The notes under the pieces: model-generated
Told to the model about the DNA's origin: nothing
The model's input: only the letters and a program-made list of their open reading frames with translations
Database searches by the model: none
Made by a program: the position numbers and the translations under genes
In this document: positions 1,268 to 9,964 of the stretch, one piece after another
Layout: every line of letters begins with the position of its first letter
Position numbering within the stretch: the stretch's first letter is position 1
Source: Candidatus Humimicrobiia bacterium
GTDB lineage: Bacteria; Actinomycetota; Humimicrobiia; JAHJRV01
Direction: 5' to 3'
Assembly: GCA_049647085.1 (NCBI GenBank)
Contig: JBARXA010000016.1
Span: 310,593-374,592 of the forward strand
DNA: 64,000 bases

Positions 1268-3676
1268 TTATTCTCTTATTTTTGCGCCTATTTTTTCTTT
1301 TAAAGCTTTTATAATTCTATTTGTAATTATATTTACCTCTCTATCAGTTAATGAACCTTTTGGATCTCTGAAAGATAGGTTAAATGCCATGCTCTTCTTC
1401 CCTTTTTCTATCTGCTCACCTCTATATATATCAAATAATCTTAATTCCTCAAGTTTTTTCCCACCTTCCTCTTTTACTATATCCGATATTTGAGACCAAT
1501 CAACCTGTTCATCAACTACAATGGCTAAATCAATTACACTTTTAGGATGTTTTATGATCTCTTGAAAGTACATACATCTCTGACTTTCTTCTATCAAAAT
1601 ATTACAATCCAGTTCCATTATATATACAGGCTTATCTAAATGAAAATTATTTTGAACCTCTGGATGAATTTGACCCAGTATTCCTAAATCTTTATTACCA
1701 ATTAATATCTTTGCACTCTTCCCAGGATGAAAGCTTTGATAAGTAAGTGGTAAGAATTTCAAATCCTTAATATAGAGTGATTCGCATATCTTTTCCAATA
1801 ATCCTTTTATTAAATAAAAATCTACTTCTTCAGCTTTTTCTAACCAATGAGATTGTTTTATTAAACCACACGTTGCTACCCCTAAATATAAAGGTTCATC
1901 TGGAAGAAATTGACCTTCTTTTGGACGGAATTTCTTTGCTAACTCAAATATATAAATACTTGTCTCACCCCTAAAAAGATTTATCCTTACAGTATTTAAA
2001 AGACTTGGAATAAGTGTAGTTCTCATTATTGTATGTTCCTTGGTAATTGGATTCTGAAGTTCTATGGCATTTCTCAATTGATCTTTTTCATCTAAACGAA
2101 GTAGATCAAAACTTTTTGGATGGTCAAATGAAAAATTCCAAACTTCATAAAAACCCTGTGATATCATTACACCTTTTAAGTTTCTAACTATGTTTTGCTC
2201 TCTATTTAATCCGCCTTTTTGACTATGTACTGGTAAAATAGCTTGAATATTATCAAAATTATGCATTCTGGCAACTTCCTCTATTAAGTCTATTTCACTT
2301 CTTAAATCAGTTCTAAATGTAGGTATCTGAACTTCTATCACTTTCCTATTAACTTCTTTTAATTTTTTCACCTTTAATTCAAGAGAGTTAAGTATCTCCT
2401 CCATTCTTTCTTGTTTAATATCTATTCCAATAATTTTATTAGCTCTTTCAGGTCTGAGTTTAACAGACCACTGAGAAACTGGATCGGGATAGATATCTAT
2501 TACTCCTTTAATAATATTCCCGTCTGTATAATTATTTATTAATTGAGCACATCTATTTAATGCAAATATTGTTGAATTCGGATCCAGTCCCTTCTCAAAT
2601 CTATTTGAAGCTTCAGTTCTAAGTCTTAACTTTTTGGAAGTTCTCATAATATTAGCTTGATTAAAATTGGCAGATTCTATTAATACTCTTTTAGTTGAAT
2701 AAGTAACTTCAGATTCAAGTCCTCCCATTACTCCAGCAATAGCTATGGGATATTCTTTATCAGCAATTACCAGCATCGATGAATCCAGATTTCTCAAATT
2801 GCCATCTAAATTTAATATCTTTTCTCCTTCTTTAGCTTTTCTAATTACAACCTTTTTCCCACTAATTTTTTCAAAATTGAATATATGTAAAGGTTGACCC
2901 GTTTCCCACATCACAAAATTAGAAATATCAGCTACACAATTTATTGGTCTTATTCCAATTGATTTTAGAAGAACTTGCATCCAGAGAGGTGTCTTCTTCA
3001 TTTTAATATCATCAACTATCTTAGTACTATATCTTGGACAAAGTTTTTTGTCTTCAACTGTAACCTCAACAATATCATCAATTTTTGGTCCTTTTTCTTC
3101 CAAGATAACCTCTGGAATTTTTAACGAACTATTAGAGAATGCAGCAACTTCTCGAGCAATACCAATTACTCCTAAACAATCAGGTCTAATAGGTATTATT
3201 TCCAAATCATAGATATAATCGTTTATCTCTAATATATCTGCTAAATCCTGACCTATTTTAAATGTATTATCTAAAATTAGTATAATGTCTTCTTCCTCGC
3301 CTAAGTCTAATTCTATCGAGGAACATAGCATTCCTTGTGAATTTATACCTTTTACCTCTCTTTTGTTGATATTTTGGTTCTTTATTTTTGAACCTACAAC
3401 TGCAACTGGTACAAGATCTCCTTCCTTTATATTATGCGCTCCACAAACAATGGATAGCTTCTCTTTTCCAATATCTACTTCACATAAAAGTAATTTTTCA
3501 CTATTGGGATGCGGCTTTATTTTTAGAATCTTTCCAACCAATACATTATTAAAAGTCGCTTTACGTAAAGTTACTGTTTCAACTCTTGTTCCTGATACAT
3601 TTAATGCCTCTGAAAGTTTTTGAGGTGATAAATCAAAATCTACATATTTTTTTAACCATTTATAAGGTATCTTCAA
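1268..3676 (-). CDS. pheT: phenylalanine--tRNA ligase beta subunit
   Basis: 802 aa, N-terminus MKIPYKWLKKYVDF typical of PheT; directly downstream of pheS. Confidence 0.93.
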   Translation of the reverse strand: MKIPYKWLKKYVDFDLSPQKLSEALNVSGTRVETVTLRKATFNNVLVGKILKIKPHPNSEKLLLCEVDIGKEKLSIVCGAHNIKEGDLVPVAVVGSKIKNQNINKREVKGINSQGMLCSSIELDLGEEEDIILILDNTFKIGQDLADILEINDYIYDLEIIPIRPDCLGVIGIAREVAAFSNSSLKIPEVILEEKGPKIDDIVEVTVEDKKLCPRYSTKIVDDIKMKKTPLWMQVLLKSIGIRPINCVADISNFVMWETGQPLHIFNFEKISGKKVVIRKAKEGEKILNLDGNLRNLDSSMLVIADKEYPIAIAGVMGGLESEVTYSTKRVLIESANFNQANIMRTSKKLRLRTEASNRFEKGLDPNSTIFALNRCAQLINNYTDGNIIKGVIDIYPDPVSQWSVKLRPERANKIIGIDIKQERMEEILNSLELKVKKLKEVNRKVIEVQIPTFRTDLRSEIDLIEEVARMHNFDNIQAILPVHSQKGGLNREQNIVRNLKGVMISQGFYEVWNFSFDHPKSFDLLRLDEKDQLRNAIELQNPITKEHTIMRTTLIPSLLNTVRINLFRGETSIYIFELAKKFRPKEGQFLPDEPLYLGVATCGLIKQSHWLEKAEEVDFYLIKGLLEKICESLYIKDLKFLPLTYQSFHPGKSAKILIGNKDLGILGQIHPEVQNNFHLDKPVYIMELDCNILIEESQRCMYFQEIIKHPKSVIDLAIVVDEQVDWSQISDIVKEEGGKKLEELRLFDIYRGEQIEKGKKSMAFNLSFRDPKGSLTDREVNIITNRIIKALKEKIGAKIRE

Positions 3677-3727: not shown

Positions 3728-4768
3728 TTAAAATTGCTTTAAAAATCTTAGGTCATTTTCAAAAAATAGTCTCATATCACTTATTTTATATTTAAGCATA
3801 GCAATTCTTTCCACACCCATTCCAAATGCAAACCCGGTATATTCTTCTGAATCAATCCCTACATTCTCTAAAACATATGGATGAACCATTCCTGATCCTA
3901 AGATCTCAATCCATCCAGTTTTTTTACAAACTGAACAACCTTTTCCCATACATTCTTGACACTGTACTAACACTTCAGCACTCGGTTCCGTATAGGGAAA
4001 ATAGCTTGGAAGTAATCTTACCTTTGTACCTTCACCAAATACTTTTTCAGCAAAAACTTCTAAAGTTGCTTTTAAATGAGCCATTGAAATACCTCTGTCA
4101 ACCACAAGTCCTTCAATTTGTGTAAACATTGAAGAGTGAGTTGGATCTATATTATCTCTTCTATACACCCTACCAGGTGAAATAATATATATTGGTGGTT
4201 CATTTCTTTCCATAAATCTTATCTGAACAGGCGATGTATGAGTTCTTAGCGGCATCTTGTCTGTGATAAAAAGTGTATCCTGTAAAGTCCTTGCTGGATG
4301 ATCTGGTGGTATATTTAATGCTTTAAAATTATAATAATCCGACTCGACTTCTGGACCCTCTGCTACTTCATAACCCATTCCAATAAAAATGTCGATTATT
4401 TCATTAGTTGTTTTAGTTATCAAATGAAGTTTTCCTAATTGTAATTGCCTTCCAGGAAGAGTTATATCTATTTCTTCTTTAAGAATCTTTTCCACTACTT
4501 TTTTCTTTAAATTATTTTTTTTCTCGTTAATAATTTCTTCTATCCTTTTACTTGCTTCATTTGCTTTTTTCCCAACCAATGGTCTTTTATTTTTAGGCAT
4601 AGAACTGAGTGATCTTAAAATGTATGTTATTTTACCCTTTCTTCCTAAATATTGATAATATATTTTCTCAAGTTCATCAATGGTTGATGCTTTATCTGTT
4701 TCAACTAAACTATCTTTTAAGTATTTCTCTATATCCTCTATATAACTATCATCACCTTTTTTAATCAT
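3728..4768 (-). CDS. pheS: phenylalanine--tRNA ligase alpha subunit
   Basis: 346 aa class II aaRS core (FPYTEPSAEV, GFAFGMGVERIAML); RBS TAGGGGG upstream of the ATG. Confidence 0.93.
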   Translation of the reverse strand: MIKKGDDSYIEDIEKYLKDSLVETDKASTIDELEKIYYQYLGRKGKITYILRSLSSMPKNKRPLVGKKANEASKRIEEIINEKKNNLKKKVVEKILKEEIDITLPGRQLQLGKLHLITKTTNEIIDIFIGMGYEVAEGPEVESDYYNFKALNIPPDHPARTLQDTLFITDKMPLRTHTSPVQIRFMERNEPPIYIISPGRVYRRDNIDPTHSSMFTQIEGLVVDRGISMAHLKATLEVFAEKVFGEGTKVRLLPSYFPYTEPSAEVLVQCQECMGKGCSVCKKTGWIEILGSGMVHPYVLENVGIDSEEYTGFAFGMGVERIAMLKYKISDMRLFFENDLRFLKQF

Positions 4769-4880
4769 AAACTACCCCCTAAATCTTTAAATCTATATCC
4801 CTTTGCAATCTTTAATATTTTTTTCTATTTATGTTTAAGTATACCTCTTTTTACTCTGACCATTTATTTTATTTATTATT

Positions 4881-4908
4881 AAAAAACCCCTCGCCTTAGG
4901 ACGAAGGG
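4881..4908 (-). terminator. intrinsic terminator after rplT (possibly the terminator arm of a T-box-like attenuator for pheST)
   Basis: Minus-strand RNA CCCUUCGUCCUAAGGCGAGGGG forms a ~9-bp stem including G-U pairs, followed by UUUUUU. Confidence 0.6.
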
Positions 4909-4914
4909 TATTTC

Positions 4915-4934
4915 TCCATGGTACCACCTAAGTT
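4915..4934 (-). promoter_or_regulatory. T-box-like motif (AACUUAGGUGGUACCAUGG) immediately 5' of the terminator
   Basis: Resembles the T-box consensus AAUUAGGGUGGUACCGCG; the UGGU bulge matches a tRNA-Phe discriminator A. No Stem I or specifier loop identified. Confidence 0.3.
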
Positions 4935-4980
4935 GGTTTTTGAATAACCCACTCAGTGCTAAGTACTTAACTGTAAAAAA

Positions 4981-5340
4981 TTATGCTGAAATTTTTTCCT
5001 TTGCAATATCTACAAGTTTAGAAAAAGCTTTTGGGTCATTTACTGCAATCTCAGACAAAACCTTTCTATTTATATCTATTTCAGCAAGTCTAAGACCATT
5101 TATAAATCTTGAATAACTCAACCCATGTTCTCTAACAGCTGCATTAATTCTCATTATCCATAATCTTCTAAAATCCCTTTTTCTTCTTTTTCTATCCCGA
5201 TAAGCATATTTCATAGATCTTAAAACTTGAGTCTTCGCTACCCTATAATTCTTACTTTTTGAACCTCTATATCCCTTTGCAAGTTTCAGTATCTTTTTTT
5301 TCTTCTTATGTTTAAGTACACCTCTTTTTACTCTAGTCAT
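4981..5340 (-). CDS. rplT: 50S ribosomal protein L20
   Basis: MTRVKRGV... start with GGAG RBS 5 nt upstream; the ORF-track start at 5370 is 10 codons too long. Confidence 0.93.
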
Positions 5341-6202: not shown

Positions 6203-6236
6203 AATTTTAATATTAAAAATGGCGGCAGAAGCCGCC
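6203..6236 (-). terminator. intrinsic terminator downstream of thrS
   Basis: Hairpin GGCGGC-AGAA-GCCGCC (6221-6236) followed on the minus strand by AUUUUUAAUAUU. Confidence 0.6.
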
Positions 6237-6387
6237 CTTTAACTTAACTACCAAACTAATAACAACTATGCATTGTTTGGTGAGAAGATTTTTAGCTCCT
6301 GCTTAACAAATATAAAATTGTAGGTATTATACATATATTCTTTATTTTTGTCTACTAAAAAAAAATTAATTTGCTTTTACTACTTAT

Positions 6388-8382
6388 TTAATCATCTTTA
6401 TGACATACTTTACTTTTTGTAGATCTGTTTTTTAGTTCTAAGTCAATTTCTTTTAGGAATTTCTCAATTGGGATTGGTCCTAAGTCTAATTCTGATCTAC
6501 ATCTTACCGCCACACAATTTGTGCTAACCTCTTTATCTCCAATAACCAACATATATGGAATTTTCGTAACCTGTGCATCTCTAATTTTTTTGCTAACAGT
6601 TTCCATCCTGTCATCTAAATCAACTCTTACACCTATTTTTTGTAAATAATCCATTACTTTTAAAGAAAAGTTTTTATGTTCATCAGTAATTGGAATTAAT
6701 ATAACTTGAACAGGTGCAAGCCAGACTGGAAAAGCTCCCTTATAGTGTTCAACTAATATACCAAAAAATCTCTCAATGCTTCCTAATATAGTTCGATGAA
6801 TCATAACTGGGCGATGTTTTGCGTTATCCTCTCCAGTATAATGTAGATCAAAAGCTTCAGGCATGGCAAAATCAAGCTGAATAGTTCCACACTGCCAGGA
6901 TCTTCCTAATTTATCAAATATGTGAAAATCTATCTTTGGACCATAGAACGCACCTTCACCAGGATTTATTGTATATTCAACACCTTTATGGTCTAATGCA
7001 TCCTTTAGTGCTGATTCTGCTCTTTCCCATATATCCAAAGAACCCATATAATCATCTGGGCGAGTTGAAAGCTCTATTTTATATTCCTTAAATCCAAATT
7101 TATCATAAATATAAATTACAAAATCTATTGTCTCTATTAATTGCTGTTCAATTTGAGAAGGTAAACAGAAAATGTGAGCATCATCCTGAGTAAAACCTCT
7201 TACTCTAAACAGACCGTGAAGAACTCCTGACAATTCATATCTATGAACGATCCCCAACTCAGCCCATTTTAAAGGCATATCTTTGTATGAACGGGGTTTA
7301 GTTCTGTAAATTAATACACCTCCTGGACAATTCATTGGCTTTACAGCAAATTCTCTACCACTTTTCTCTAAAAAATACATAAGTTCTTTGTAATGATCCC
7401 AGTGACCAGACATCTGCCAAAGATTTTTATCTAAAAGTATTGGAGTTCCTACTTGCTCATATCCCCTTTTTAAAAGTTCTTCTTTCAGGAAATCTAATAT
7501 ACTGTTTATAATAATCATTCCTTTGGGATGAAAAAATGGAAAACCGGGTCCTTCTTTATGAAAACTGTATAAATCAAGTTCTTTACCTAATTTTCTATGG
7601 TCTATCTTTTTTGCTTCCTCTATTTTTTGTAAATGTTTTTCCAATTCTTCTTGAGTAGTAAATGCAGTTCCATATATTCTCTGAAGCATAGGATTCCTTT
7701 CGTCACCTCTCCAATACGCTCCAGCTATACTTAACAGCTTAAAAACCTTTACCTTTCCCGTTGATGGTAGATGTGGTCCCCTACAGAGGTCTATAAAATC
7801 ACCCTGTTCATATAAACTTACAATATCTTCCTTAATATCATCTATTAAATGCTGTTTATAAGTTTCACTGGAAAAAATTTTTTTTGCTTCTTCCTTGTTG
7901 ACTTCTTTTCTTATTATTGAGATATCTTTTTTCACAATCTCCTCCATTCTTTTTTCAATTTTTTCTAAATCTTCAGGTATAAAAGGTTTTTGAGGATCAA
8001 AATCATAGTAGAAACCATTTTTTATTGTTGGACCTATAGCTATTTTAACTCCAGGAAAAAGTTCATATACTGCATTCGCCATAACATGAGCTGTAGTATG
8101 TCTTAAAATGTTTAATCCATCCTCATCTTTATATGTAACTGGTTTTAAGACTGCATTTTCTGTTATTATGTGAGATAAATCCAATAATTTATCATTTATC
8201 CTTATAGCTACAACTTCATCGATGTTTGGTATATCAAATGACTCTAAAACCTCAATTGCACCCACATTCTTATGAAATTTTTTAACATTGTCTGGAGAAA
8301 TTTTTATTTCTATTAACTCATCATTTTTACATTTATCTGAATTATTGTTTGCTTTCATCTTCTTATATCCCCTCATAACCAA
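6388..8382 (-). CDS. thrS: threonine--tRNA ligase
   Basis: 664 aa with TGS, editing and class II core domains. The track start at 8382 is a TTG; the ATG at 8356-8358 preceded by AGGGGA is the more likely start. Confidence 0.93.
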   Translation of the reverse strand: MVMRGYKKMKANNNSDKCKNDELIEIKISPDNVKKFHKNVGAIEVLESFDIPNIDEVVAIRINDKLLDLSHIITENAVLKPVTYKDEDGLNILRHTTAHVMANAVYELFPGVKIAIGPTIKNGFYYDFDPQKPFIPEDLEKIEKRMEEIVKKDISIIRKEVNKEEAKKIFSSETYKQHLIDDIKEDIVSLYEQGDFIDLCRGPHLPSTGKVKVFKLLSIAGAYWRGDERNPMLQRIYGTAFTTQEELEKHLQKIEEAKKIDHRKLGKELDLYSFHKEGPGFPFFHPKGMIIINSILDFLKEELLKRGYEQVGTPILLDKNLWQMSGHWDHYKELMYFLEKSGREFAVKPMNCPGGVLIYRTKPRSYKDMPLKWAELGIVHRYELSGVLHGLFRVRGFTQDDAHIFCLPSQIEQQLIETIDFVIYIYDKFGFKEYKIELSTRPDDYMGSLDIWERAESALKDALDHKGVEYTINPGEGAFYGPKIDFHIFDKLGRSWQCGTIQLDFAMPEAFDLHYTGEDNAKHRPVMIHRTILGSIERFFGILVEHYKGAFPVWLAPVQVILIPITDEHKNFSLKVMDYLQKIGVRVDLDDRMETVSKKIRDAQVTKIPYMLVIGDKEVSTNCVAVRCRSELDLGPIPIEKFLKEIDLELKNRSTKSKVCHKDD

Positions 8383-8818
8383 TATTTAAATATTATTTAT
8401 TTGAACTATTTAAGAGATGTGTTTGCAACTCTTAATCTTTTTAAAAATATTCGTACATTGAAAACTAAAAATGATTAACAAGTTTTACTTTTTGTTTTAT
8501 TTAGAAGTTTGTTTATATGTTTTGTTTATAAATAATACCAAATTAGATGAATTATAAACAAGTTAAATTAACACTTTGTTTATTGTTCTTTATTTTTTCA
8601 ACCTAGCCTTAGCTTCACTAAGAGTAAGTTTTATCTTATCCCCGTTAAGAGGAAGGAAAGGAAATTTAAAATCAATAATTCACCAAAAGAAGGTGAAAAT
8701 TTTAATTAACAATCTATTATAATATACTCGGATTTTTTTATATTATAATGTATTAAGTTATTACTAAAAAAATTATTAAATACTAATTAACTAGATTAAA
8801 AAATATTGTGAAACTAAA

Positions 8819-9964
8819 TTGGAAAATAATTATTATGTTTTAGGTATAGATGAGGCAGGATATGGACCAGATATTGGTCCACTTGTTGTAACATCTTCAC
8901 TTTTTAGACTTAGTGAAAAATATCATTCAGAGAAATTTTGGGAGACTCTTTCTGAAATAGTCTCAAAAAAAACAAAAGAATTTCCAGAAAAAGTAATAGT
9001 TTCAGATAGTAAAGATATATTTAAAAATCATCCAAAAAATTATTTAATAGGTGAAACTACTACTTTGTGTTCTTACTGTCTCTTATATCCTGTGCCACTT
9101 AATTTTCAAGAATTCCTACAAAATATATTCTTAGATAACTTAGATTTATTTCAAAAAAGATGCAAAACTTTTAGCAAATACACATATAGAATGTGTTGGG
9201 GTAATAATGATTTTTTTTCTGAAGATCCTTTAAATTCTAAAAATTTAAATCCAAAACCCTATATTAATGATTTATTCCCAAAACTAAAAAAAGTTATAAA
9301 AAGTTCAGGAATTGATTTAATAGATATAAAAAGTATAGTTTTATGTCCACATTTATATAATAAATCAATTACTAAAAAAAGGAAGCTTTTTTTAAATTAC
9401 TTACAATTTGAGAGATTAATAGAAAATGCTTTAAAAAGGATTTTGATAAAAAATATTTCAGTTAAAGATAAAGAAGAGACAGAAAAGTTAGAAAAAAAAT
9501 ATAAAAAAGAAACTATAAATTTTAAAAAGAATGAGCAAAAGAATAATTTAAATTCAATTTTTGTAATTGCTGATAAGCTTGGATCAAAAAAATATTATAT
9601 TAATTATCTTAAAAGTGGATTGCTTGGAAATTTCAAAATAAAAATTTTGGAACAAAACAGAAATATATCTTCTTATGAGCTATCAAATAGTTTGGCAGTA
9701 AGAATATCATTTATAAAGGAAGGTGACAAAACCCACTTCCCCATTGCTTTATCTTCTGTTTTTTCAAAATACATTCGAGAGAGGTTTATTAAAAATATAA
9801 ATGAATTCTTTGCAACAAAAATTCAAAATTTAAAACCAACAAAGGGGTATGCATATAAAATAGAAAAATTTATTGAAGTTACAAATGATGTAAGAAAAAA
9901 ATATGATATTGCTACAAATTGTTTTTTAAGAAAAAGGGATAGTCTCTTGCGCTTATTTGATTAA
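8819..9964 (+). CDS. RNase HII-like protein with a large internal Lys/Asn-rich insertion
   Basis: N-terminal VLGIDEAGYGP and VSDSKDIF match RNase HII catalytic motifs; IFVIADKLGSK and GDKTHFPIALSSVFSK match the later motifs. About 180 aa of low-complexity sequence separates them. TTG start in the ORF track, no clear RBS. Confidence 0.45.
   Translation: MENNYYVLGIDEAGYGPDIGPLVVTSSLFRLSEKYHSEKFWETLSEIVSKKTKEFPEKVIVSDSKDIFKNHPKNYLIGETTTLCSYCLLYPVPLNFQEFLQNIFLDNLDLFQKRCKTFSKYTYRMCWGNNDFFSEDPLNSKNLNPKPYINDLFPKLKKVIKSSGIDLIDIKSIVLCPHLYNKSITKKRKLFLNYLQFERLIENALKRILIKNISVKDKEETEKLEKKYKKETINFKKNEQKNNLNSIFVIADKLGSKKYYINYLKSGLLGNFKIKILEQNRNISSYELSNSLAVRISFIKEGDKTHFPIALSSVFSKYIRERFIKNINEFFATKIQNLKPTKGYAYKIEKFIEVTNDVRKKYDIATNCFLRKRDSLLRLFD

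Follow-up and report, generated by a model that had tools for sequence, protein, structure and literature searches.

Transcription-terminating T-boxes of the RF00230 class, with Stem II and the IIA/B pseudoknot, lie upstream of pheS in many Bacillota, and thrS is under T-box control in many Gram-positive bacteria. The ileS T-boxes of actinobacteria have a shortened Stem I, keep the specifier loop and Stem II, and control translation by sequestering the Shine-Dalgarno sequence. In Escherichia coli, the genes are arranged as thrS-infC-rpmI-rplT-pheM-pheST; a terminator is located between rplT and pheST, some pheST transcription comes from upstream, and pheM is a Phe-rich leader peptide attenuator with its own promoter. 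To our knowledge, the discriminator domain of a T-box is found in nature only when linked to a Stem I, which delivers the tRNA. All T-boxes are described as requiring Stem I for decoding; it selects the tRNA via its anticodon and elbow, and the discriminator domain then checks only the tRNA 3' end and senses aminoacylation (review PMC7583486). In this study, the spacer between rplT and pheS was analyzed in the window, that is, the whole 64-kb stretch of DNA under investigation. The spacer is likely to be the fossil of a Phe-specific transcription-terminating T-box leader that once controlled pheST, and whose terminator now ends or attenuates infC-rpmI-rplT.

On the minus strand of the window, the gene order is thrS (8382-6388), infC (6018-5518), rpmI (5561-5367), rplT (4981-5340), a 212-nt spacer, pheS (3728-4768) and pheT (1268-3676), with infC and rpmI upstream of rplT in the same operon. 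The rplT gene encodes ribosomal protein L20 of 119 aa (PF00453 match on the identical contig L081) and ends with a TAA stop codon at 4983-4981; pheS and pheT encode the alpha (346 aa) and beta (802 aa) subunits of PheRS. The start of pheS lies 113 nt downstream of the U tract of the terminator in the spacer, which is the location relative to an aminoacyl-tRNA synthetase gene expected of a T-box leader. The gene order and the terminator between rplT and pheST are the same as in E. coli, but the only short ORF of the window spacer lies after the terminator and is a broken copy of the beginning of rplT with one Phe codon, and not a Phe-rich leader peptide of the pheM type. Neither a T-box nor any other Rfam family was found upstream of thrS (8383-8818, minus strand, within a search of 8300-8900), even with a permissive threshold. 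A tRNA-Phe gene, from which the discriminator base could be read, was not found in the window. GC skew is negative over almost the entire window.

Relatives were collected by scanning the PheS of the window against one genome per species, which yielded three close relatives, and further contigs of the clade were added by a metagenome scan and PheS cluster look-ups. All clade contigs carry infC, rpmI, rplT, the spacer, pheS and pheT in this order, with thrS upstream wherever the flank is long enough. The closest genomes in public databases are three MAGs that bear the label "Actinomycetes bacterium", although the DNA is about 30% G+C. The next-nearest PheS sequences (approximately 57-59% identity) belong mostly to Clostridia, and also to Bacilli and deep Actinomycetota.

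The comparison of the leader with related genomes, as proposed in the preliminary description of this locus, revealed a genuine Phe T-box at the same place in sister lineages. The lineage with 79% PheS identity (L003 and L173-L182) has a full T-box between rplT and pheS, scoring 122.8 bits in L003 and L173; the lineage with 84% identity (L086 and L169-L172) has one at the same position, scoring 130.6 bits in L086. These intact leaders contain AGAGA, the distal loop and a specifier loop, GAAGUUCA, with the Phe codon UUC. Among more distant pheS loci, a T-box was found at the gathering score in 11 of the 17 tested. Beginning directly 3' of the F-box GCGUUA, the last 100 nt or so of the L003 leader, with Stem III, the T-box sequence and the terminator, can be aligned base by base to positions 4972-4881 of the window at about 90% identity. 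Relative to L003, one block of approximately 260 nt is absent from the window, L001 and L002, appearing as a single alignment gap; it comprises the promoter-like site, Stem I, the specifier loop, Stem II, the IIA/B pseudoknot and the F-box. The junction, UUUUUUAC (4973-4980, minus strand), forms the first nucleotides of the spacer in the alignment with L003, and the remnant starts 8 nt after the rplT stop codon. At the level of sequence, these alignments show that an ancestral deletion of about 260 nt fused the discriminator domain 8 nt behind the rplT stop. Five distinct truncated variants were recovered, namely the window (identical to L081 and L082), L001, L083, L002 and L163-L167. They come from independent NCBI MAG, JGI and Logan assemblies, and all belong to the clade with at least 89% PheS identity. 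Since five distinct variants from independent assemblies, all in one clade, are truncated and the 84% and 79% lineages are intact, the deletion represents one real event and not an assembly artefact. Judged from this distribution, the truncation took place after the 84% lineage had branched off.

The remnant as a whole occupies 4881-4972 on the minus strand, as delimited by RF00230 and the L003 alignment, and consists of a linker, Stem III, the T-box sequence, the antiterminator and the terminator. The core of Stem III (GGUU/AACC with a 7-nt loop) lies at 4935-4949 according to the RF00230 alignment and the predicted fold. The preliminary description had placed a T-box-like motif on the minus strand of the spacer, and the motif is indeed present as AACUUAGGUGGUACCAUGG at 4934-4916; it starts 46 nt after the rplT stop, and not about 55 nt as then estimated. 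Its reported closeness to an 18-nt T-box consensus holds for the core AGGUGGUACC, which is exact, unique in the 64 kb and matched in 0 of 100 shuffles, but only 13 of 18 positions agree in the ungapped register. A search for the consensus with up to three mismatches gave no match because that register has five. The UGGU bulge was correctly recognized; it is part of the 7-nt bulge UGGUACC (4926-4920), in which UGGU would pair with an ACCA 3' end. A1, the bulge and A2 can all form, so that the antiterminator pairing looked for is available: the potential antiterminator (4895-4932, minus strand; computed at -9.4 kcal/mol) combines A1, CUUAGG (4932-4927) with CCUAAG (4900-4895), and A2, AUGGAG (4919-4914) with CUUCGU (4906-4901).

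The intrinsic terminator (4881-4909, minus strand) consists of a 10-bp hairpin (4909-4886) and U6 (4886-4881). The hairpin, ACCCUUCGUC-CUAA-GGCGAGGGGU, begins 71 nt 3' of the rplT stop and has 6 G-C pairs, a 4-nt loop and a computed energy of -15.4 kcal/mol. The hairpin of about 9 bp and the U6 reported earlier are thus both there, with the stem reaching ten pairs if the closing A-U is counted. A GC-rich hairpin directly before a U run and downstream of a gene has the form of an intrinsic terminator. The antiterminator and the terminator are mutually exclusive, since the terminator uses the 3' strands of A1 and A2 (shared positions 4909-4895). The remnant therefore shows the features of a T-box expression platform: Stem III, a 7-nt UGGN bulge, and an antiterminator that excludes a terminator. 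It matches almost exactly the isolated discriminator domain defined by structural work (Stem III plus antiterminator; reviewed in PMC7583486), with the 3' strand of the terminator in addition. Unlike tethered discriminator domains, the window copy follows a coding gene with no Stem I attached and is in decay. In addition, MFE and centroid folds predict an extended Stem III hairpin at 4921-4966 on the minus strand (GUACU..CUGAGU.GGUU...AACC.ACUUAG..GGUAC), and the same fold is predicted in all relatives. The extended hairpin is predicted to sequester the 5' half of the T-box sequence, and would therefore compete with the antiterminator.

The preliminary assignment to a T-box for pheS is thus correct in that the element is homologous to the 3' end of a Phe T-box. 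It shares with terminating T-boxes of RF00230 the position before pheS, Stem III, the T-box sequence including the UGGU bulge, and the choice between antiterminator and terminator. Unlike them, it has lost Stem I with its K-turn, UUC specifier loop, AG bulge and distal loop platform, all deleted relative to L003, as well as Stem II, the IIA/B pseudoknot, the F-box and its own promoter; homology resumes only after the GCGUUA of L003.

Among the truncated variants, 15 of the 70 columns between the rplT stop and the terminator are variable (21%; mean pairwise difference 0.100), which is indistinguishable from the third codon positions of pheS (75/347, 22%; 0.115; Fisher p = 1.0). Purifying selection on the T-box sequence and antiterminator was therefore not detected in this clade. 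For the terminator and U run, only 1 of 29 columns is variable (3%), which is lower than both the third codon positions of pheS (p = 0.015) and the adjacent remnant (p = 0.034), in a sample of five closely related variants with small counts. In the intact lineages, 2 of 63 sites of the same region differ as against 117 of 347 third positions (34%; p = 4e-8), and the two lineages are identical over CUUAGGUGGUACCACGGAG. The terminator hairpin is also kept in L003 and L086. Because the remnant changes at the third-position rate and the terminator is fixed, the T-box part has been drifting since the truncation, with the terminator alone being kept. It is unlikely that the entire remnant, including the hairpin, is functionless debris in which the conservation of the terminator is accidental, with infC-rpmI-rplT-pheST forming one transcription unit or pheST having an unrecognized promoter in the region of the rplT copy. 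Such a view would be favored by the close relationship of the variants and the low counts (1/29), by the essential role of PheRS, which must be robustly expressed, and by the ability of AT-rich DNA to hide non-consensus promoters; the lower variability of the terminator in both comparisons speaks against it, as does the nature of its sole change, a U-to-C in L002 that turns a G-U pair into a G-C pair. A hairpin followed by U6 is, moreover, a textbook intrinsic terminator.

The substitutions seen in the truncated variants are such as would disable a T-box. In four truncated variants, CUUAGG is changed to CUCAGG, which creates a C-A mismatch in A1 and makes the extended Stem III (CUGAGU/ACUCAG) fully Watson-Crick in L083, L002 and L163; the corresponding arm in L001 is CCGAGU. 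In L163 the bulge is changed from UGGUACC to UGGUACU, and L002 has two mismatches in A2. The computed energy of the antiterminator is -10.7 and -11.2 kcal/mol in the intact leaders, -9.4 in the window, and -7.4, -7.1 and -1.1 in the others, whereas that of the terminator stays at -15.4 kcal/mol and improves to -18.1 in L002. The window copy is the least decayed: the bulge is intact, both antiterminator helices are possible, and only one C-to-U change, giving a U-G wobble, separates it from the intact leaders.

Taken alone, the window sequence would leave some room for residual binding of a tRNA 3' end. A minimal T-box that works without a specifier, by binding the free ACCA of any uncharged A73 tRNA, could build on the UGGUACC bulge, Stem III, and the A1 and A2 helices of 6 bp each, which are intact in the window and exclude the terminator, and on the fact that the discriminator domain is the aminoacylation-sensing part of the T-box (PMC7583486). 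We consider this very unlikely, and equally so the resulting increase of readthrough from rplT into pheST in general amino-acid starvation: Stem I is obligatory for tRNA recruitment (PMC7583486), the antiterminator falls short of the terminator in stability by about 6 kcal/mol and also competes with the extended Stem III, and the T-box-specific positions change at the third-position rate of pheS, with mutations that break the bulge or a helix in 4 of 5 variants. Also very unlikely, given the neutral drift across the clade, is a living discriminator domain in the window's own genome, acting as a sensor of bulk uncharged tRNA that tunes transcription from infC-rpmI-rplT into pheST. Such an element, if real, would be a natural T-box without Stem I, located inside an operon and not at its head, and truly new. 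The actinobacterial ileS T-boxes demonstrate that partial loss of Stem I is tolerated; the remnant differs from them in lacking the specifier and in having a terminator as its platform.

At the Rfam gathering score, the entire window contains four tRNAs only and no T-box. The check with RF00230 that had been recommended earlier thus stayed below the gathering score; in a permissive search it gave 38.1 bits (gathering score 93; E = 1.8e-6 for a 1.7-kb stretch). Only Stem III and the antiterminator are aligned at high posterior probability. The alignment spans 5067-4894, but Stem I is dropped: 11 nt, placed with low posterior probability, stand in for 68 model positions. Stem II of the model is matched weakly, to coding sequence of rplT. 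Of the other truncated relatives, L001 scores 42.4 bits, and L002, L083 and L163 have no match at E <= 0.01. The preliminary description had reasoned that a Stem I and specifier would have to overlap the 3' coding region of rplT, and had called for a specifier loop and the Stem I AGAGA motif to be sought there. Positions 5200-4925 contain neither a GAA..UUCR specifier nor a GGUGNRA distal-loop motif nor an F-box, and all that was found is a lone AGAGA and an AGGGA inside the rplT coding sequence. A canonical Phe T-box overlapping rplT is therefore scarcely credible: the model can be stretched over the region and UUC triplets do occur in the 3' end of rplT, but Stem I is deleted in an alignment of 38 bits against the 93 of the gathering score, the hallmark motifs are missing, and the alignment with L003 shows those parts to be absent. 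As for an ordinary rplT terminator that carries a T-box-like motif by chance, the alternative given in the preliminary description, the terminator is canonical in form and termination the most likely function, but chance is refuted, its probability being close to nil, by about 90% identity over about 100 nt to genuine T-box 3' ends at the same locus in sister lineages, by the uniqueness of the core motif and by the E-value of the model. Since the gathering score is not reached, Stem I and the specifier are missing and constraint on the T-box sequence is not seen, the element should not be annotated as a functional T-box. It is most probably an intrinsic terminator, and a T-box by descent.

Without Stem I, the selection of tRNA-Phe would be lost, and the antiterminator would have no ligand-dependent stabilization. 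As Stem I, the specifier and Stem II are gone, tRNA-Phe would not be recruited, and the nascent RNA would be expected to form first the extended Stem III and then the terminator. The latter would form by default, given its energy of -15.4 against -9.4 kcal/mol for the antiterminator and the competing extended Stem III. Its form and the selective constraint on it suggest that the hairpin with U6 now acts as the terminator or attenuator that closes infC-rpmI-rplT, and pheST would most likely be expressed from operon transcripts that read through, with translation from an AGGGGG site.

Between the terminator and pheS, a search of the coding strand in the window, L163 and L001 revealed no promoter-like site; the sole match on the correct strand ends inside pheS. 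In L003, a promoter-like TTTATA-18-TAAAAT is located directly before the T-box, within the part deleted in the window lineage. Because the leader promoter is deleted and none is recognized before pheS, readthrough from the upstream operon is the most economical explanation, and a pheST promoter of an unrecognized type in the window is possible. PheRS is essential, and a 10-bp GC-rich terminator with U6 upstream of its genes, together with the lack of a recognizable promoter, is awkward unless readthrough is appreciable or the promoter is non-consensus. Scans of the intact relatives detected no further terminator-like site in the interval from rplT to the T-box; the T-box terminator probably already closed the rplT operon there, which would account for its retention after the deletion. 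In L003, the T-box terminator (2753-2785) was not picked up by the consensus scan, even though its hairpin is plainly present. A run of A before the hairpin may have allowed the stem to be extended into the U tract; the omission is a shortcoming of the tool, with no biological difference behind it.

This locus thus offers a clean and datable case of riboswitch decay, with intact and truncated forms at one place in genomes whose PheS are 79-94% identical. It indicates what becomes of the parts of a T-box after the loss of its decoding domain: the terminator is kept, and Stem III and the T-box sequence drift. In the truncated lineage, PheRS synthesis would be uncoupled from tRNA-Phe charging, and probably tied instead to transcription of the ribosomal protein/IF3 operon. 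For annotation, a good T-box motif and a terminator before an aminoacyl-tRNA synthetase gene do not by themselves imply tRNA-dependent regulation. A riboswitch fossil opens no new kind of mechanism. Our literature search, of limited coverage, found no specific description of T-box remnants, and an earlier description may exist.

The infC leader (6208-6354, minus strand) has a strong promoter-like TAGACA-17-TATAAT at 6354-6326. It also contains a sub-threshold match to L20_leader (RF00558; 26 bits against a gathering score of 58.7), which ends in the hairpin GGCGGCUUCUGCCGCC followed by AUUUUU. This element is possibly an attenuator controlled by L20; if pheST depends on readthrough, it would now govern pheST too.

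Between the terminator and pheS lies a degenerate copy of the first 24 or so codons of rplT (4792-4863, minus strand). In the window, it starts with an ATG at 4863-4861 and has an in-frame TAG at 4827-4825; the frame would otherwise run to a TGA at 4767-4765 that overlaps the pheS ATG. The copy is followed by UUUAAAGAUUUAGGGGGUAGUUU and then the pheS AUG, with the Shine-Dalgarno-like AGGGGG (4775-4780, minus strand) 6 nt before the ATG and kept in all truncated variants. The corresponding copy in L001 is at 2907-2979, and copies are also found in the terminator-to-pheS spacers of L002, L163 and L085. The copy includes the ribosome-binding site of rplT in L001, L083, L085, L163 and L168, and in L085, L163 and L168 it also takes in the rpmI stop together with the nucleotides directly preceding it. 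Its frame is open in L001, L083 and L002, contains a stop in the window and L085, and is frameshifted in L163. Being broken in three variants, the frame does not encode a conserved leader peptide. Two sequence types of the copy occur, out of step with the relationships given by shared deletions, and one of them is identical to genuine rplT. This pattern suggests gene conversion of the copy from the genuine rplT about 450 nt upstream. A search of the intact lineages for traces of the copy older than the truncation gave none in L003 and a marginal one in L086 (TTGCAAAGGGCATATAG), with 31 of 1000 shuffles scoring as high. The L086 stretch at 2363-2385, TTGCAAAGGGCATATAGTGGGT, resembles codons 19-25 of rplT; with this marginal similarity, it may be an older, decayed trace of the same copy.

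The intact relatives also differ from the truncated clade in the region before pheS. In L003 (2855-2946) and L086 (about 2390-2500), a conserved AT-rich hairpin with a stem of about 18 bp lies between a conserved Shine-Dalgarno-like GGAGGUGA and the pheS AUG; its computed energies are -20.8 and -18.8 kcal/mol (z = -2.7 and -1.8), respectively. The intact relatives have no Shine-Dalgarno sequence adjoining the pheS AUG, whereas the truncated clade lacks the AT-rich hairpin and has its Shine-Dalgarno sequence 6 nt from the AUG. The hairpin with its distant Shine-Dalgarno sequence may be a second regulatory element or a split ribosome-binding site, and a 3-codon mini-ORF starts within its 5' arm.
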